From an uncultured Candidatus Saccharibacteria bacterium (GTDB lineage Bacteria > Patescibacteriota > UBA1384 > CAJBMM01), in assembly GCA_964561525.1 (NCBI GenBank), contig CAZLPY010000003.1, positions 1 to 50,327 of the forward strand: a stretch of 50,327 bases of DNA, written 5' to 3'. Position numbers and translations under genes: made by a program. Positions 159 to 40,311 of the stretch are shown one piece after another; position 1 is the first letter of the stretch; every line of letters starts with the position of its first letter. Under the pieces are notes generated by a model. It saw only the letters and a list, made by a program, of their open reading frames with translations, was not told the origin of the DNA and searched no databases.

Positions 159-1085
159 TCAAGATCTCTTTTTTGCTGAGACATTCTGCCATGCTGCTAA
201 CAGAGGGGTGGCGTTAAAGATTGAGGAATAGGTTCCGACCGCGATACCGAGTAGGAGCGCCAGGACGAACCCTCGGGTGCTCTCCCCTCCCAGCAAAAAC
301 ATGGCCAGTAGCACGATTAAAACAGTTAACGATGTATTAAGTGATCGGGCTAAAGTTTGGGCGATGCTGATGTTTGCCACCGTACTAAATGGAGCTCCGG
401 GGTTAAGGCGCAAGTTTTCGCGGATACGATCGAACACCACGATGGTGTCGTGAACTGAAAAGCCCATTACGGTGAGGAGCGCGGTCACAAATAAGCTGTC
501 CACCTCTACGTAGGGCAAGAATAATCCGAGGATGGCAAACATCCCGACTACGAACAGCAAATCATGGAGCAGGGCAGCGACCGCGCTCACGCCAAAGCGC
601 CAGGAGCTGGCCGGTTTTGGTAATTTGCGGAACGCCCAGGCGATGTAAAAAATGATCGCAAACGATGCAACAACCACTCGAGTAATTGCCTTATTGGTTT
701 GGTCTTTACCGATTGCAGGGCCAACCACCGAATAGGTAGCTTCGTGTGCGTCCGGGATTGCTTTGATTACCGCGTCCTGCACCGCCTTGTGCTGCTCCTC
801 ATTTAAGGAGTCAGTGCGGATAATGAACCCCCGGTCCCCGCTTAGCTGCACTGTTTTTGTTTTGAGGTCAAGCGCGGTAAGCGAGCTTTGCACTTGATTA
901 ATGGTAACGGCATTTGTGGTCGTGTACTCAATCACTGAACCACTGCGAAAATCGATACCGATTTTAATACCATGAGTGGCTAGGACAATAATCCCGGGGA
1001 TGATCAGCAGCGCCGATAATCCAAACCACAGCCATTTTTTTTCAACGATACGCGGAATAGATTGTGATGTTGATATTTCAGTCAT
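159..1085 (-). CDS. secF: protein translocase subunit SecF
   Basis: 308-aa ORF with an N-terminal TM, a periplasmic loop and a C-terminal multi-TM block containing a SecD/SecF-type DTIVVFDRIREN motif. Lies directly downstream of secD. Confidence 0.9.
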   Translation of the reverse strand: MTEISTSQSIPRIVEKKWLWFGLSALLIIPGIIVLATHGIKIGIDFRSGSVIEYTTTNAVTINQVQSSLTALDLKTKTVQLSGDRGFIIRTDSLNEEQHKAVQDAVIKAIPDAHEATYSVVGPAIGKDQTNKAITRVVVASFAIIFYIAWAFRKLPKPASSWRFGVSAVAALLHDLLFVVGMFAILGLFLPYVEVDSLFVTALLTVMGFSVHDTIVVFDRIRENLRLNPGAPFSTVANISIAQTLARSLNTSLTVLIVLLAMFLLGGESTRGFVLALLLGIAVGTYSSIFNATPLLAAWQNVSAKKRS

Positions 1086-1192: not shown

Positions 1193-2482
1193 CTAGACAT
1201 GTATCGCCTTTTTGAATGGTGTATGCATGATTAGTTTTAACAACACTTGGGTTACGGTAATGGCAGTGAACATGCTGACCAGTACACCGATAGCCAGGGT
1301 TAAGGCAAAGCCTTTGATCAACCCTTCAGTACCAATGTATAGTATCAGTGCGGTAATGAGCGTTGAGATGTTGCTATCGCGAATACTGGTCCAGGCTCGC
1401 TTAAAGCCTTCGTCGATTGAGGTCATCACCGGTTTGCCACGACGCAGCTCCTCACGCATGCGCTCAAAAATGAGGATATTGGCATCTACTGCCATTCCAA
1501 TTGAAAGAATAAACCCGGCCACACCGGCTAAGGTGATGGTAACGGGGATAAGCTTGTACAGGGCCACGTTGATCACGGTGTAGATGCAAAGAGCAATTAC
1601 CGCTAAGAACCCAGGTAAACGATAATAGATCAGCATAAACAATGCCACCAACAAAAATCCGATCAGTCCGGCCACCAAGCTTTTTTTCAACGATTCAGAG
1701 CCGAGTGTGGCGCCAACGGTTTGCTGTGAAATTATTTTTACCGGCACTGGCAGCGCTCCTTGATTGAGCTGATCAGCCAGTTTTTTAGCGGTTTCAATAG
1801 TAAACCCTCCCCCACTGATCACCGCGTTGCCGTCGGTAATAGCTGACTGCACTACCGGATCCGAGACCACTTGCCCATCCAAAATAATGGCGATATGTCC
1901 CTGCGGTGAAGCGCTAGAGGCTTTGGTTGTAGCATCAGCAAACTTTTTTTTGCCATCGTCTTTAAATTTTAGTGAGACTTGTGGTTCACCGGAAATGCTT
2001 TTTGAGGTAGATGAAGAGGTGGTGGAATCGCCAAAGGTCACTTGAGCGCTATCGACATCGGCACCGGAGACGATTGCATTACCTTGATCGTCGACAAATT
2101 TTAGATCCGGAAATTGGCCGATCCGTTGAATAGCTTCATCCACATTGACCACTCCTGGCAACTCAACACGCAACGTATTAATATCGCCAATCTTGCCCAC
2201 TTGAATCACTGGCTCGGACACACCGAGTGAGTTCACGCGATCGTTAACTAGCGATTTCAGTGAATCCAGGGCTTGTGCTTGCTTATCAGCAGTAGTTTTT
2301 GATAAATCGGCTTCATACGTTATGGCCACTCCCCCTTTTAAGTCGAGTCCCTGGTGAATAAACAGCGTCTTTGTATATGAGCCTAATTTTAGATCCGGCC
2401 CGTTTGGCAACGTCACCAACACCGCAATTGCAGTTACCGCAACGATGAACAATAAACGGAAGTAAAGTGATCGTTTAATCAA
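1193..2482 (-). CDS. secD: protein translocase subunit SecD
   Basis: 429-aa ORF with an N-terminal TM, a large periplasmic domain and a C-terminal 5-TM block with NILIFERMREE. TTG start at 2482 preceded by AAGGTGGAG. Confidence 0.9.
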   Translation of the reverse strand: MIKRSLYFRLLFIVAVTAIAVLVTLPNGPDLKLGSYTKTLFIHQGLDLKGGVAITYEADLSKTTADKQAQALDSLKSLVNDRVNSLGVSEPVIQVGKIGDINTLRVELPGVVNVDEAIQRIGQFPDLKFVDDQGNAIVSGADVDSAQVTFGDSTTSSSTSKSISGEPQVSLKFKDDGKKKFADATTKASSASPQGHIAIILDGQVVSDPVVQSAITDGNAVISGGGFTIETAKKLADQLNQGALPVPVKIISQQTVGATLGSESLKKSLVAGLIGFLLVALFMLIYYRLPGFLAVIALCIYTVINVALYKLIPVTITLAGVAGFILSIGMAVDANILIFERMREELRRGKPVMTSIDEGFKRAWTSIRDSNISTLITALILYIGTEGLIKGFALTLAIGVLVSMFTAITVTQVLLKLIMHTPFKKAIHV

Positions 2483-2602
2483 GGCTCCACCTTGTTGTTA
2501 CTAAGTCGGTTCGCAACCATATTCACTCTGTTCATTAGTTGCTCCTGAAGGTCGCAACCATACTCCCTGCGGTCGTTAGTTGCTCGTTTCACTCGCAACC
2601 AT
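2480..2602 (-). promoter_or_regulatory. three tandem 41-nt leader units upstream of secD (mini-ORFs / hairpins / possible operators)
   Basis: Units start at 2602, 2561 and 2520. Each begins ATGGTTGCGA, has a variable 7-nt core, then GAGCAACTAA (TAGTAACAAC in unit 3). They encode MVASETSN*, MVATFRSN* and MVANRLSNNKVEP*, the last stop overlapping the secD start. Confidence 0.6.
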
Positions 2603-2613
2603 CTTACGAGGGA

Positions 2614-2642
2614 ATTGTAACTGGTTATAGCTTGTGGGTCAA
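2614..2642 (-). promoter_or_regulatory. sigma70-like promoter for the secDF leader
   Basis: TTGACC (2642..2637), a 17-nt spacer, then TACAAT (2619..2614) on the minus strand, immediately after a terminator hairpin. Confidence 0.5.
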
Positions 2643-2645
2643 GAC

Positions 2646-2683
2646 AGCAAAACGAGATGGAATGCATGCAGCATTCCATCTCG
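2646..2683 (-). terminator. intrinsic terminator-like hairpin
   Basis: Perfect 13-bp stem CGAGATGGAATGC/GCATTCCATCTCG (2653-2665 / 2671-2683) with a 5-nt loop, followed on the minus strand by TTTTGCT. Confidence 0.5.
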
Positions 2684-2694
2684 AGTGGCCGATA

Positions 2695-2883
2695 TTACTC
2701 GGCCGGGTGCTCATATGCGGAGAGTGTGCTCCTGCCATCCTCGTCGACGATCTTGAAGCAGAGTCCGCTCTCGTTCCGCGGTGGCCCCTCTGGGTCAATT
2801 CGAGGTGTGCTCGTGCGCTGCTCGGGTGTCCTCTGCTCCTTTTGATTACGATCAGGCCGACGAATCTTGTAACTACGCTGCAC
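2695..2883 (-). CDS. hypothetical small basic/acidic protein (62 aa); alternatively part of a structured RNA
   Basis: GTG start 5 nt after a strong GAGGGGGA Shine-Dalgarno. The stop lies in the loop of hairpin GGCCGA/TCGGCC and is followed by the 2653-2683 terminator. The region is G+C-rich and open in several frames, so coding is uncertain. Confidence 0.35.
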   Translation of the reverse strand: MQRSYKIRRPDRNQKEQRTPEQRTSTPRIDPEGPPRNESGLCFKIVDEDGRSTLSAYEHPAE

Positions 2884-2900: not shown

Positions 2901-2924
2901 AAAAAATAGGATCCTACAGATCCT
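2901..2924 (-). terminator. intrinsic terminator after the RHH-domain gene
   Basis: Stem AGGATC/GATCCT (2908-2913 / 2919-2924) with a 5-nt loop, followed on the minus strand by ATTTTTT. Confidence 0.5.
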
Positions 2925-2953: not shown

Positions 2954-3589
2954 TTACTTATTGAAAGAGACGCTCGGGACGATAATGACATCCCCTGTTT
3001 CAACCAGTTGTGGCAGCACATCTTTTTCCAGCACCGAAAAGCCTTTTCCGATTTTTGACGCAATAGTTTTTTCCATGATTCCGCCTCCAGATAAGGTTTG
3101 AGAGTCTATGGTCATCATGGTAACAAGGGCATGATAGCGAAGATGATATGCGATTACCCTTTCCCAATCTAGGTCAAGTTCGCTCGTAAGATTTATGAAT
3201 GCAAAACGCTCCGCAAGTTGCGATGCCATCGCCCGCAATCCTCCCCCACTCCCGAGTGTTGTAGGATGAAAGATAAGCTGAGCTTTCAGGTTAAAAGCCG
3301 TTATGTCGGTTGAAAGATCCTTGCCATACTCTCCTTGCACGACATGAATGGTGGTGATGCCTACCTTACTGAGCTCGCGTAGCGGTTTTTGGAGGTAAGC
3401 GAGATGTGCCCGTGCGCCTGACCCTCCTAAAAATACCACCGCATCAATAATTTGATCGCTTTGCAGTCCCTTTTTTAAAATTGATTCAATAGCATGGGAG
3501 CGGTTGCGCACCAATTGCTTGTCAATTAATGAATCAATTTTTTTGACTAATGAATCCTGAATAGAGATCGTTACGCGCTCTCGGGTCAC
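2954..3589 (-). CDS. ribbon-helix-helix (CopG-like) domain fused to a nucleotidyltransferase-like domain
   Basis: The N-terminus RVTISIQDSLVKKIDSLIDKQLVRNRSHAIESILKKGL has an RHH pattern. The remainder resembles sugar-phosphate nucleotidyltransferases (LGGSGARA, LGSGGGL). Start taken as GTG 3589 (AGGAG 6 nt upstream) rather than the ORF-track TTG at 3634. Confidence 0.65.
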   Translation of the reverse strand: MTRERVTISIQDSLVKKIDSLIDKQLVRNRSHAIESILKKGLQSDQIIDAVVFLGGSGARAHLAYLQKPLRELSKVGITTIHVVQGEYGKDLSTDITAFNLKAQLIFHPTTLGSGGGLRAMASQLAERFAFINLTSELDLDWERVIAYHLRYHALVTMMTIDSQTLSGGGIMEKTIASKIGKGFSVLEKDVLPQLVETGDVIIVPSVSFNK

Positions 3590-3632: not shown

Positions 3633-3662
3633 AAAAAATGAAATCTTGTATATCAAGATTTC
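3633..3662 (-). terminator. intrinsic terminator after gmk
   Basis: Stem GAAATCTTG/CAAGATTTC (3640-3648 / 3654-3662) followed on the minus strand by ATTTTTT. Confidence 0.5.
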
Positions 3663-34104: not shown

Positions 34105-34860
34105 TTAGTCGTTGCCATGCATGATAGACATAATGCGCCGCCGTTCGGCTATCTCGTGCTCCTCCCTGAGCTTTCGCTCCGCCTCTTTGTCATTGGCCTC
34201 CTTAATGGCGCGGTTGTCAGTGTAGCTGAGTGGTTCGTCAAGGTACGCCATGATGAGGCGCTCGCGGTCGGGGGTGATGATTCGAGCCTTAGTGTAGAGC
34301 TGGATCAGGCTGCGCAAGGTCCATATGGAATGCAGCTTGATGCCGTGCTGAGCGAGCAGCTCTGCTCCGCCCTGCTCTCGGTCAACCAGCACCACAACGT
34401 CGGTGACCACCAGCTCTACGCCTGGCGCACGCAGAGGCTGGATGTACTCCAGCTTACTCGCGCCGTCGGTGATGACGTTGTCGATCAGGACGCATGTTTG
34501 TCCCGGTTCCCAGCGTCCCTCAATCGCCTTTTTCGTCCCGTAGTCTTTAACTCCTTCGCGGATCCAGATGTTCGGAATTTCGTTGCCGAACTCAAGGTGT
34601 TCGCGCGAGATGGCTTGGGCCAACGGCTGGCCTGCCATCGGGATACCGGCGACGATGTCGAATTTGAGACCTTCCAAAACGTCCAGGAAGCGCCTTCCCA
34701 AATTCGCGAGTAGCCTGGGGAACGAGACGAATCCTCGGCCGTCGACGTAGACGGGGGATTTCAGGTGGGATTTAAGCACTCGCTCGGTATTGGCTTCAAT
34801 CTCGCCGGTCTGTTCGATGGCCAAAGCTAGCTCGACGTCATTACTTGCACAATGCCTCAT
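34105..34860 (-). CDS. pyrE: orotate phosphoribosyltransferase with a charged C-terminal extension
   Basis: KSPVYVDGR and the PRPP loop VLIDNVITDGAS. ATG 34860 is preceded by GAGGAGGG and sits 1 nt after the upstream stop. It has a roughly 40-aa Lys/Glu/Arg-rich tail. Confidence 0.8.
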   Translation of the reverse strand: MRHCASNDVELALAIEQTGEIEANTERVLKSHLKSPVYVDGRGFVSFPRLLANLGRRFLDVLEGLKFDIVAGIPMAGQPLAQAISREHLEFGNEIPNIWIREGVKDYGTKKAIEGRWEPGQTCVLIDNVITDGASKLEYIQPLRAPGVELVVTDVVVLVDREQGGAELLAQHGIKLHSIWTLRSLIQLYTKARIITPDRERLIMAYLDEPLSYTDNRAIKEANDKEAERKLREEHEIAERRRIMSIMHGND

Positions 34861-34861
34861 C

Positions 34862-35515
34862 TCAACCCTCCTCTTTGACCTGATTAGGCCGCGGCGAATT
34901 CCTCGGCAAATCGCAGTGCTGAGCCACCGTCGGGTTTTCGATTTGCTGCCTCCCCCGCCGCAACATCTCCTCATCTTCGCAGTGAAAAGCGGCTCGCTTA
35001 CCACTGGCTCGAATGATGTCGAGTGCTCTTGTGATGGCGGCCCGCTTTCGCAGCAGTAAATTGCCGGTGGTGGAAGCAAGGTAAATCTTGCCACCGACGA
35101 TGCGGTCATGTTTCAGGGCACTTTCGAGGCAGGCCGAGTTGCCATCCACTACGCCCATCCAGTAGCGGTACTGAATCGGCTGTTCACCGATGAACCGTTC
35201 CCTGTGCGGGATGTCCTCATCGTAAATCAGCGGAATTGCGCTGTTTGGCATGGCGGCCACGGTTGTTACCCCGCCCAGCAAGGAGGCTCGAGCCAAGGCA
35301 GGCCAGGTTTCCTTGTGAGGCGACTCGCCGAAGCGATCATGCACATGCATGTCGATGGCGGCCGGCAGGGCTAGTAAGCCATTTGCATCGAATACGTCAC
35401 TTACCGGATAGCCTTGTTCCCTCTCGGGTTGGTCAATGGCATAGATTCGTCTATCATGAATCGCCACGCGATGGGTGCTAGTATCGATGAATCGTACGTT
35501 CGTGAGAATGATCAT
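34862..35515 (-). CDS. dihydroorotase-like protein, N-terminal half only (truncated)
   Basis: IDMHVHDRFGE, GGVTTVAAMPNS, KIYLASTTG and HCEDEE align with the first roughly 190 residues of PyrC. The ORF ends at 217 aa, whereas typical dihydroorotases are about 420-430 aa. Confidence 0.7.
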   Translation of the reverse strand: MIILTNVRFIDTSTHRVAIHDRRIYAIDQPEREQGYPVSDVFDANGLLALPAAIDMHVHDRFGESPHKETWPALARASLLGGVTTVAAMPNSAIPLIYDEDIPHRERFIGEQPIQYRYWMGVVDGNSACLESALKHDRIVGGKIYLASTTGNLLLRKRAAITRALDIIRASGKRAAFHCEDEEMLRRGRQQIENPTVAQHCDLPRNSPRPNQVKEEG

Positions 35516-37503: not shown

Positions 37504-37529
37504 CATGTTGTATGCTACATGTTGCATGT
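37504..37529. promoter_or_regulatory. overlapping palindromes upstream of lexA (candidate operator)
   Basis: CATGT-N8-ACATG (37504-37521) overlapping ACATG-N3-CATGT (37517-37529), 46-73 nt upstream of the lexA ATG. Confidence 0.3.
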
Positions 37530-37566
37530 CTTTATCTTATCCGAACAAAGACCGAAGTGTCAATAC

Positions 37567-38178
37567 TTATTCGGATTTAGGACGTTTAAGCTGCCAGAGG
37601 GCGATGGCGGTTGCGGTGGCGACGTTGTAGGATTTGATTCCTCCGCGCATCGGCTCCGTTCGCGGGGTATGCAGTAGTTTCTCATGTTCATTCGAAACTA
37701 GGCTCACGTTGTTCTTCAATTGCTCGCTTACGCTCGTAATTGCTTTGTCCGCGCGAATCGTTCGTCGTAGTTGGTCATTGTTGTTCCCAACCATCGGGAT
37801 CTGCAAGTGAATATCAGCTTGGTTCAGGCCTGACTGCCCTACTCCTTCCCGCTCATGACCGACAATTAAGGCAAGCGGAAACGTTGGTTCATACTCTGAC
37901 AACGAAATAGCACTCGGAGTAATTTCAAGTGCGGCAACAGTAAAACCCTGTGTTTTAACTTGTGGGATCAGAGTTGCGAGAGAGTCCGAATATTCAAACG
38001 GCACGCGGGTTTCGGCTCCTAATGCAGTTTTGTGGATCTCCTTCCGAGGTGGCACTGGTGTAATTCCAACTAAATAGATTTTTGATACGCCCAGACCATC
38101 GGCGGTGCGAAAAATCGCCCCGACATTATATAAAGAGCGAATGTTATCGAGAATCAATACGATTTGCGTGTCGAACAT
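37567..38178 (-). CDS. SpoU/TrmH-family RNA 2'-O-methyltransferase with a 48-aa insertion
   Basis: LDNIRSLYNVGAIFRTADGLG, LIVGHEREGV, and IPM...GGIKSYNVATATAIAL. The last motif is split by 48 extra residues. Confidence 0.8.
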   Translation of the reverse strand: MFDTQIVLILDNIRSLYNVGAIFRTADGLGVSKIYLVGITPVPPRKEIHKTALGAETRVPFEYSDSLATLIPQVKTQGFTVAALEITPSAISLSEYEPTFPLALIVGHEREGVGQSGLNQADIHLQIPMVGNNNDQLRRTIRADKAITSVSEQLKNNVSLVSNEHEKLLHTPRTEPMRGGIKSYNVATATAIALWQLKRPKSE

Positions 38179-39582: not shown

Positions 39583-39683
39583 AGCCCCTCAATGTATGCT
39601 TGCTTAACTGAGGCAAAGTGTAGCATGTGCCATGAATTTGTCAAGGGTTCCTGGCAAATTTTCTCGCGCAAGCGCCTAAAAGC

Positions 39684-39716
39684 AAAAAAATTGGCGGAAG
39701 AGTTGCTTCTTCCGCC
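39684..39716 (-). terminator. intrinsic terminator
   Basis: 9-bp stem GGCGGAAGA/TCTTCCGCC, followed on the minus strand by AATTTTTTTGC. Confidence 0.6.
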
Positions 39717-39737
39717 TGGGTCATTGTTGGTACCTGC

Positions 39738-39956
39738 CTAGTCCGTCTGTTTAATGGTGCTCGCGTCGCCCGGCACATAACCAGGCGGATACGATGCGAT
39801 GGTTTCGCTACCAACCGACTCGATGCTTGCTCCGGTCAAAGGAAGATTTGTTCCGACAACATTTAATCTACCCTCCCTTGCGTCGGCCAGCATGTCACCG
39901 AGAGGTGTACGCTCGTACAGTTTGTCCGGCTTTCTCATGCCCATTGGTTGTGGCAT
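39738..39956 (-). CDS. hypothetical small protein (72 aa)
   Basis: ATG 39956 lies 8 nt after AAGGA, with its own promoter (40043..40015) and terminator. No family recognised. Confidence 0.5.
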   Translation of the reverse strand: MPQPMGMRKPDKLYERTPLGDMLADAREGRLNVVGTNLPLTGASIESVGSETIASYPPGYVPGDASTIKQTD

Positions 39957-40014
39957 GTCGTTCATCCTTTTTACAAGGCAGTGCTGCAGACGACGCTGCG
40001 GCTCGTTTGTACAT

Positions 40015-40043
40015 ATAATACTACACCTGTCATCGTTCGTCAA
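40015..40043 (-). promoter_or_regulatory. sigma70-like promoter for 39738..39956
   Basis: TTGACG (40043..40038), a 17-nt spacer, then TATTAT (40020..40015). Confidence 0.5.
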
Positions 40044-40112
40044 CAAAATTGGCACAGCTATGCAGATGCACCGGGTCTTGCCAAGGGAATGCAATTAAGG
40101 TACATTTCGTTG

Positions 40113-40310
40113 TAATACCATGTACAGCGGTCGCTGTTTTAAAACCATTTTTTTAAGATTTCGCGTCTAAGCTGCAGGCGCCGCGTGGACGCGAAAGAGC
40201 CGGTGGGGCGACGTGGAGACGCCCCACTGGTTTCATCTTGTAGCCTATCAGCCGTTACTTCGAGAAGTGTCAGCCTGACTTAAGGATCCCTTAGTCAGGC
40301 TTGTCTTTTA
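40113..40310 (+). ncRNA. candidate structured small RNA (orientation uncertain)
   Basis: Plus-strand TTGCCA-N17-TACATT (40078-40106). Then hairpins ACAGC/GCTGT+T-run (40124-40150), TTTCGCGTC/GACGCGAAA (40159-40196) and CCGGTGGGGCG/CGCCCCACTGG (40200-40230). A terminal AGCCTGACT.../...AGTCAGGCT hairpin (40272-40301) is followed by TGTCTTTTAT. Confidence 0.3.
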
Positions 40311-40311
40311 T

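Follow-up and report, generated by a model that had tools for sequence, protein, structure and literature searches.

A tandem hairpin repeat on the secD start codon of a Saccharibacteria genome, probably a miniature insertion element

The secD locus and its three-unit array

The window analysed here, that is the whole stretch of 50,327 nucleotides, covers positions 1 to 50,327 of contig CAZLPY010000003.1 from an uncultured Candidatus Saccharibacteria bacterium (assembly GCA_964561525.1). Towards its left end the minus strand carries secF (159..1085, 308 aa) and secD (1193..2482, 429 aa, with the domains SecD_1st, SecDF_P1_head and SecD_SecF_C), and between secD and its promoter lie three head-to-tail units of a short hairpin repeat, which are the subject of this report. 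The secDF promoter is of the sigma-70 type, TTGACC-N17-TACAAT (2614..2642, minus strand), with the TTGACC box at 2642..2637, a 17-nt spacer and the TACAAT box at 2619..2614, followed by 11 nt up to the first unit. It scored 10 of 12 consensus matches in a promoter scan. As promoter-like sites were not in excess over shuffled sequences in the secD region (two observed, shuffle mean 2.1), the promoter is supported by its conservation in seven relatives, described below. An intrinsic terminator with a 13-bp stem and a T-run (2653..2683, minus strand), also recovered as an inverted repeat, separates it from an upstream open reading frame (ORF) of 62 aa.

The three units started at 2602, 2561 and 2520 on the minus strand with an exact 41-nt pitch, and a repeat finder returned the same spacing; this arrangement downstream of the promoter had been described correctly in a first-pass annotation made from the sequence alone. 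Unit 1 (2562..2602) reads ATGGTTGCGA-gtgaaac-GAGCAACTAA followed by the spacer cgaccgcagggagt; its hairpin spans approximately 2577..2601 (-9.0 kcal/mol) and the unit scored 53.7 bits with the covariance model (CM) of the repeat (2559..2602). Unit 2 (2521..2561) reads ATGGTTGCGA-ccttcag-GAGCAACTAA followed by the spacer tgaacagagtgaat, with a hairpin of -9.5 kcal/mol, and unit 3 (2480..2520, CM score 26.1 bits) reads ATGGTTGCGA-accgact-TAGTAACAAC-aaggtggagccTTG. The left arm ATGGTTGCGA was invariant in the three units and the loops were unrelated. Units 1 and 2 have the right arm GAGCAACTAA; in unit 3 it is TAGTAACAAC, with the stem preserved by a G.U pair, so that the motif GTTGC-N11-GCAAC attributed to every unit was exact in the first two and became GTTGC-N11-GTAAC in the third. 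The only exact matches of the arm pattern in the 50 kb were the three secD units, with 0.71 chance matches expected at two mismatches. Units 1 and 2 were identical at 20 of 20 arm positions and at 9 of 21 positions in the remainder of the unit (Fisher p=3.7e-5). Tandem Repeats Finder applied to 2300-2800 called no array because the units are too diverged.

Each unit also contains a mini-ORF in the orientation of secD: MVASETSN (2576..2602), MVATFRSN (2535..2561) and MVANRLSNNKVEP (2479..2520), of 8, 8 and 13 codons, each ending in a stop codon and none with a hydrophobic segment. The stop of the third overlaps the TTG start codon of secD (2482..2480) in the tetranucleotide TTGA (2482..2479), exactly as first proposed. 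Unit 3 provides both an SD-like (Shine-Dalgarno-like) sequence, GGTGGAG, and the current TTG start, and these are enclosed in a 5-bp hairpin, CAAGG-UGGAG-CCUUG (2480..2494, minus strand), present in the minimum free energy and the centroid folds of the leader. As a whole, the leader folded more stably than shuffled sequences (z=-2.3), and units 1 and 2 could alternatively pair with each other in a nested arrangement.

The secD locus was then compared with its relatives. A clade of 15 SecD proteins with 66-80% identity was found in a large protein database and contigs were obtained for seven of them, giving ten loci (L081-L090); the seven close relatives compared (L081, L083, L084, L085, L087, L088 and L090) have SecD proteins 71-80% identical to that of the window. 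The species representatives of GTDB were more distant, with SecD identities that did not exceed 56% for the best segment and were in most cases 40-49%. In each of the seven close relatives a TTGAyy-N17-TAnnAT promoter was located immediately upstream of secD, with 14, 19, 14, 26, 28, 15 and 22 nt between the -10 element and the start codon, and in none of the seven was a unit present. The CM had no match in the 676 kb of 90 secD loci (80 more distant ones in addition to L081-L090), and the scan of GTDB genomes with SecD returned no locus with the unit motif upstream of secD. The TTG start of the window aligned with the ATG of the relatives (MIKRSLYF facing MIKRNLLF or MIKRNLYI). Removal of 120 nt, [GTT...TTG] (2480..2599, minus strand), gave TACAATtccctcgtaagATGATTAAACGA, which is the architecture of L084 and L088, where the sequence reads ATGATTAAACGC. 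The array is therefore an insertion placed exactly on the ancestral start codon. The first-pass annotation had seen in the units a dedicated secDF leader, with their absence or lack of conservation upstream of secD in relatives named beforehand as the outcome that would speak against it; absence is what was observed, in the seven close relatives and in the 80 more distant loci.

Several other features of this region were recorded. The 62-aa ORF (2695..2883, minus strand), between a ribbon-helix-helix (RHH)-like gene and the secD promoter, has its own SD-like sequence, appears GC-rich by eye, has no Pfam match and is flanked by terminators at 2924..2908 and 2683..2653; its slot is variable, since relatives carry unrelated ORFs there (76 aa in L083, 157 aa in L090). 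A perfect palindrome at 3640..3662, upstream of the RHH-like gene, forms a 9-bp hairpin flanked on each side by T-runs; it had a terminator score on both strands and may be bidirectional. In the closest relative, L083 (2945-3000), the aligned secD frame starts at an ATT codon with AGGAG 6 nt before it, and the gene caller placed the start further downstream (411 aa); secD may use a non-canonical ATT start codon there.

Further copies in the window and in related contigs

A second array was found in the window, 35 kb from the first, inside a SpoU/TrmH gene (37567..38178, minus strand). It is a 144-nt in-frame and stop-free insert (37648..37791, minus strand) made of three hairpin units of 51, 42 and 51 nt, with CM scores of 36.8, 43.1 and 21.2 bits. 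The insert adds 48 codons between 'IPM' and 'RGGIKSYNVATA', starts right after the ATG of the IPM motif, and ends ...GGAGCCGATG, as the secD array ends ...GGAGCCTTG. It was missing from all 11 closest orthologue sequences aligned, which read IPMxGxxKSLNV uninterrupted. Among the other 120 best matches, 119 were 143-198 aa long, compared to 203 aa in the window, and one of 206 aa (P0189) was not examined. The invariant SpoU residues were all retained despite the insert; in the AlphaFold (AF2) model the core showed pLDDT (predicted local distance difference test) values of 87-97, and the insert formed a helix and a coil with values of 45-60. When the 48-aa insert peptide was searched against 1.84 billion representatives, only two unrelated, highly repetitive proteins matched; a further in-frame copy could not be detected at the protein level.

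A metagenome scan with the pattern ATGGTTGCGA-N6-8-GAGCAACTAA yielded three contigs, all of one metagenome, OBEQ01. One contig, L109, was syntenic with the 36.8-44.2 kb region of the window, with 50-86% protein identity, and the OBEQ01 contigs therefore come from related organisms. Further copies were retrieved by a structure-aware scan and with the unit CM, and the family as collected consists of about 13 units. In L110 and L111, two 43-nt units are located exactly on the start ATG of a gene with a LytR_C domain, and both assemblies hold the two units. The filled site in L110 reads ...tttatttATGG[TTGCGA...gatgagtATGG]CAAAATTTTTTGAT, and the same site is empty in L114 (...tattttaaATGGCGAAATTTTTTGAT), the closest complete relative, and in the window (...ccatacATGGTTAAATTTTTTGAT). 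The internal ORF of the L110 array stops 8 nt before the start of the LytR_C gene. L114 carries one unit elsewhere, between ClpB and the next gene and antisense to both.

Larger composite elements were also observed. Contigs L107 and L108 share a homologous composite of approximately 175 nt (L107:9925-10085 and L108:6565-6735, both on the minus strand), in which a three-way junction closed by the stem of the unit, GUUGC-GA...GA-GCAAC, is followed by the unit hairpin and by a 3' hairpin. Its RNA fold was strongly more stable than expected (z=-5.6), and a 2-nt indel between the two copies shifts the frame, the nucleotides being otherwise conserved. The flanks differ between the contigs, no protein gene lies downstream on that strand and no Rfam match was found; these composites may be small RNA genes or full-length versions of the repeat. 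A second type of composite was present at L108:1720-1890 (plus strand) and L110:10720-10834 (minus strand), the latter at the same locus as L109:2813-2900. It is composed of a unit followed by ATrGTT..GA-TTGCTCA-ATTGACCG-GAGC-TAGTCGAAC-GGTCAAGG, with a possible TTGACC/GGTCAA pseudoknot pairing. The L108 copy is bordered by a 30-nt direct repeat, TCAAGGGTCGCTCGCCAGCGACCCGCAGAC. The L110 copy is located directly upstream of the lexA promoter, at a site which is empty in L114 and in the window. For the composites, K-turn, box C/D, tmRNA tag, signal recognition particle RNA, 6S RNA, group I or II intron and retron were considered and rejected, as neither a model match nor a neighbour gene was found. 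Upstream of lexA, a block TTGACAsTwCGGTyTTTGTTCGGATAmrATAaA was highly conserved (about 37520..37566 on the minus strand of the window, L110:10835-10870 and L114:11330-11370) and is probably the lexA promoter with an SOS box.

Altogether, orthologous filled and empty sites were available at four loci: secD, SpoU, the LytR_C gene and the region upstream of lexA. At the three genic sites (3/3) the repeat lies in the sense orientation and exactly after an ATG, and both orientations occur in intergenic DNA. Among the loci compared, no insertion site was common to different lineages. In a comparison with MITEs, which have terminal inverted repeats and a target-site duplication of fixed length, short direct repeats of differing lengths were seen beside the arrays (ATG/TTG at secD, CCGATG at SpoU, tATGG in L110), and the arrays had no terminal inverted repeats beyond the hairpin of each unit. 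The spacers of the secD array matched those of units in other genomes at 10-11 of 14-15 positions and that of the neighbouring unit at 8 of 14, and the loops shared 1 position of 7; being closer to units of other genomes than to their neighbours, they fit either independent insertions or an old array. The two L110 units, with a spacer likeness of 13/15, look like a local duplication. The contig index had no record of the window's SecD, and hence no independent assembly of the secD array. An assembly artefact was judged unlikely, as related units were recovered in four independent assemblies of the L110 locus (NCBI, ENA, Logan and JGI). In the viral database IMG/VR the full-unit pattern gave no match, and the pattern of two left arms gave 16 matches, about the chance rate, all of them in unrelated coding sequences or simple repeats.

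Two further segments of the window were noted. Between the ClpB and HisRS-like genes, 729 nt (39583..40311) contain no convincing ORF and no Rfam match at relaxed thresholds; the same slot is occupied by a gene of 329 aa in L114 and by a 940-nt gap in L110. A dihydroorotase-like amidohydrolase gene (34105..35515, minus strand) seems split or truncated, with two overlapping ORFs in different frames (34862..35515 and 34105..35109), and only residues 1-202 of the 423-aa L114 orthologue align; this may be due to a frameshift, a pseudogene or a divergent C-terminus.

Conservation of the hairpin

Across the family the unit length varied from 41 to 51 nt around a common hairpin, made of the stem UGGUUGC/GCAACUA, a tandem G.A/A.G, then one or two Watson-Crick pairs and a loop, both variable; after the hairpin stand a partly conserved spacer, CGAAC..AGTGAGT (SD-like), and an ATG. 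The order of pairs in the stem is U-A, G.U, G-C, U-A, U-A, G-C, C-G, tandem G.A/A.G, then one or two further pairs. The loops measured 7 or 8 nt (a central spacer of 11 or 12 nt between the arms) and were frequently closed into GNRA tetraloops (GCGA, GAGA, GAAA, GUAA). In an alignment of 11 units the stem was 92.9% paired and six of the nine pairs were changed on both sides, values reached by none of 500 shuffles, in a signal that is partly circular because the filter that retrieved 3-4 of the 11 sequences required pairing. Copies retrieved through the sequence pattern or through adjacency showed the same pairing pattern as those found by the filter. Shifting the partner by 1-3 columns lowered the pairing to 16-51%, and the pair closing the loop was standard in 11 of 11 units, with three different pair types (p ~2e-5). 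The ATGG strand folded better in 10 of 13 units (totals of -104 and -70 kcal/mol for the two strands) because the G.U and G.A pairs are strand-specific. Of the three readings first offered for the units, as peptides, RNA hairpins or DNA operators, it is thus the RNA hairpin that agrees with the family, and conservation follows stems rather than codons. The hairpin corresponds to no Rfam family: no match reached the gathering score in the window or in L107-L109, and at relaxed E-values the window, the secD leader, the OBEQ contigs and the 729-nt gap gave only chance-level matches. ARAGORN detected no tRNA and no tmRNA in the window.

The same alignment bears on the proposal that the units are three phased duplex operators, T.GTTGC-N11-GCAAC.A, at which an RHH protein or another dimeric repressor, bound downstream of the promoter, would form a roadblock. 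The inverted-repeat symmetry and the 41-bp pitch of about four helical turns recommend it, and a gene coding for a protein with an RHH_1 domain (E=2.5e-4) does adjoin secD, outside the element (2954..3589, minus strand), as had been noted. The half-sites, however, changed with complementarity kept, from GGTTGC/GCAACT to AGTTAC/GTAACT, AGTTTC/GAAACT, AGTCAC/GTGACT and AATTAC/GCAATT, and a sequence-specific duplex-binding protein would not tolerate such changes. The central spacer is moreover self-complementary and of 11 or 12 nt, the conserved G.A and G.U positions are strand-asymmetric, and RHH-like genes with 36-38% identity along the full length adjoin secD in L081, L083, L084 and L090, all without units. 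We regard operators as very improbable.

Nor did the peptides behave as conserved products. The form MVAxxxSN followed by a stop was confined to secD units 1 and 2; other units of the family had 8-nt loops, with which the TAA is no longer in frame, ATA replaced ATG in L108c and L109c, and the translations differed. With loops of either 7 or 8 nt and ATA in the place of some ATG codons, the peptide is not conserved, and of the first interpretation of the mini-ORFs what stands is their presence as read. This weakens the proposal of a secDF leader sensing secretion through translated mini-ORFs, like the leaders of SecM-secA, MifM-yidC2 and VemP-secDF2. The latter are peptides of approximately 95-170 residues, with an export signal and an arrest motif, conserved together with their target. 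An upstream ORF before a secretion gene is common to both situations, and the predicted hairpin at the secD start may occlude the SD like the stem of those leaders; in addition, the first ATG of the array lies about 5 nt from the predicted transcription start site, ORF2 and ORF3 are preceded by 14-nt gaps with SD-like purine runs, and ORF3 ends on the secD TTG. The secD ORFs, in contrast, encode 8, 8 and 13 residues with no export signal or membrane segment for the translocon to pull, the units are absent from the secD leader of every relative examined, and they also occur in places irrelevant to secretion such as the inside of SpoU. A sensing leader is in our opinion highly unlikely, and the translational-coupling geometry claimed for the TTGA overlap, which is real, has its precedent in the MIRUs (mycobacterial interspersed repetitive units) discussed below and not in the three arrest peptides.

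A broader possibility is that the hairpin is a functional RNA module (a protein-binding site, an mRNA stabiliser or a translation tuner) of which three copies regulate secD in this lineage, having perhaps arrived as mobile DNA. The arm sequence and the G.A/A.G tandem are invariant or almost invariant, the three secD arms are identical and the loops and spacers have diverged without indels; the polarity is that of the mRNA at all three genic sites, and the folding of the leader, with its nested alternative pairing and its SD/start hairpin, is in agreement with such a role. Against it, neither an Rfam family nor a candidate binding protein was identified, copies are antisense to genes, intergenic with no gene downstream, or inside a coding sequence, and the lack of a site common to lineages reflects turnover rather than a conserved regulon. 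Regulation by a functional module is accordingly an unlikely, if the most serious, alternative to an insertion element.

A probable miniature insertion element and its likeness to known systems

We consider it likely that the secD units are tandem copies of a lineage-restricted miniature hairpin-repeat insertion element, dispersed in a few related genomes of Patescibacteria. The best reading of its organisation is a module made of the hairpin, the spacer and an ATG, analogous to the MIRUs at start codons and to the Rickettsia palindromic elements (RPEs) in genes. We infer its mobility from the filled and empty sites; the position after an ATG may reflect targeting of this codon rather than survivorship.

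A scenario for secD can be proposed. The repeat would have landed on the secD start codon, between the conserved promoter and the coding sequence, and lengthened the leader from 14-28 nt to about 125 nt. As the 3' end of each unit recreates an SD-like sequence and an ATG target, the array may have grown by re-insertion at the unit's own ATG, or by local duplication. The old start ATG, near the 5' end of the transcript, would now open the first 8-codon ORF, and ribosomes could then pass through ORF2 and ORF3 as far as the TTGA overlap by terminating and re-initiating, as has been proposed for MIRUs; given the gaps between the ORFs and the SD-like sequence before the TTG, such a relay into secD is plausible. 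The insertion was presumably tolerated because an SD-like sequence and a start codon, at present TTG, come with the 3' end of the element. The hairpins could stabilise or hinder the mRNA, and if the array has a regulatory effect on secD, this would be a by-product particular to the lineage, or a co-option.

Several points weigh against the insertion element. No transposase, reverse transcriptase, Y1/RAYT (REP-associated tyrosine transposase), Nop-domain or other mobilisation gene was found with Pfam among the approximately 46 proteins of the 50-kb window. The family comprises only about 13 units, with the partial circularity of its covariation signal mentioned above, and targeting of ATG is documented by three cases, in which a survivorship effect is possible. 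The identical left arms (3/3) and the lack of indels in the loops and spacers of the secD array could signal a local function, for instance as a hairpin that binds a protein.

A bolder extension would make the repeat the first example of a class of ATG-homing miniature elements in Patescibacteria, the G.A hairpin being a handle for a mobilisation machinery, possibly at the RNA level, and the insertions being made translationally silent by ribosome relay or hopping from one duplicated ATG to another. In that case the old start-site signals would continue to direct the synthesis of SecD, and SpoU would keep its function with 48 extra codons in the knot region, which would imply a byp-like bypass or excision of the insert. 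We mention this idea as a speculation with little chance of being correct.

The genomes of Patescibacteria are generally considered to contain little mobile DNA. A non-exhaustive search of the literature on small repeats in the candidate phyla radiation (CPR, Patescibacteria) returned nothing relevant and, as far as the literature covered by it shows, this is the first small dispersed repeat family described in these reduced genomes. The array should be annotated neither as a riboswitch nor as an operator or leader peptides, and it does not represent a new leader that monitors secretion. Repeats of this kind can lead gene callers astray, by creating wrong starts and spurious small ORFs, as well as genome binning, and in metagenomes the filled and empty sites could be used to tell strains apart.

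The alternation of conserved and variable segments recalls the TIGR (tandem interspaced guide RNA) arrays, which contain dual repeats and were reported from 'parasitic bacteria' (PMC12045711). They are characterised by two alternating repeats of 8-12 nt, edge and loop, with UG...CCA boxes, by equal 9-nt spacers, usually 5-15 units, a Nop-domain Tas gene and an array-end terminator (PMC12045711). In the secD array 10 conserved, 7 variable, 10 conserved and 14 semi-variable nucleotides follow one another, so that a minimal TIGR-like or CRISPR-like array, processed into small guide RNAs, was envisaged on the basis of this short period in a reduced-genome bacterium. The resemblance is superficial. 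The variable segments measure 7-8 and 14-15 nt, ATGGTTGCGA and GAGCAACTAA form a complementary pair, and a consensus of the spacer exists across the family; no UG...CCA box, adjacent Tas gene or array-end terminator was present and no Nop-domain protein is encoded in the window, the array runs into secD, and copies are found inside a coding gene. A TIGR array was rejected, and a guide-RNA function in general is extremely unlikely. A type III toxin-antitoxin RNA array, with a promoter and tandem repeats of about 36-45 nt, was rejected too because no toxin gene follows, only secD.

Among small dispersed structured repeats the likeness is closer. The BOX elements of Streptococcus pneumoniae are modular, with a boxB module present in a varying number of tandem copies, and can alter the expression of neighbouring genes. 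The REP (repetitive extragenic palindromic) sequences and bacterial interspersed mosaic elements (BIMEs) of proteobacteria are typically high-copy, strictly extragenic, arranged in inverted pairs and linked to a RAYT transposase. The present repeat shares with both the character of a small dispersed structured intergenic repeat, and its single-hairpin arrays and L107/L108 composites are similarly modular. It differs from REP by its direct tandem arrangement and its intragenic array; no RAYT gene was seen among the window proteins, and similarity in sequence to either group is not expected.

The RPEs are palindromic elements of about 100-150 bp, described in a review as inserting in frame in genes, whose reading frame stays intact, and in non-coding DNA (PMC10969869; Ogata et al. 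2000). The SpoU insert is comparable, since it is 144 nt long, stop-free, a multiple of 3 and absent from the orthologues, and the repeat thus lies within a gene for a catalytic domain without breaking its frame, like the RPEs of Rickettsia. An RPE, in contrast, is a single long palindrome with a conserved peptide, whereas here three short hairpins are present and their translation is poorly conserved.

The closest parallel is provided by the MIRUs, units of about 40-100 bp described in a summary (PMC12548453, citing Supply 1997) as mobile and as landing on start codons, where an ORF inside the unit is coupled to the gene at -4 nt. In the terms of that summary the similarities are the short units, the head-to-tail arrays at several loci, the orientation with the gene and the -4 overlap, which is the TTGA at secD. 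Two arrays were found in the window, in addition to the loci in L107, L108, L110 and L114, and placement on a start codon with an internal ORF was observed at secD and at the L110 LytR_C gene, the internal ATG of SpoU being an exception. The phylum is unrelated, and the features proper to the present repeat are the covarying hairpin with its tandem G.A, the unconserved internal ORF and the antisense, composite and intragenic copies. The comparison is therefore an analogy and not a claim of membership, and no sequence homology is expected. The secD array is probably a CPR-specific variant of the small dispersed structured repeats, MIRU-like at start codons and RPE-like in genes. Convergence on the MIRU strategy, in which an element lands on a start codon and brings a replacement ribosome-binding region, would make this strategy look general rather than a mycobacterial curiosity.

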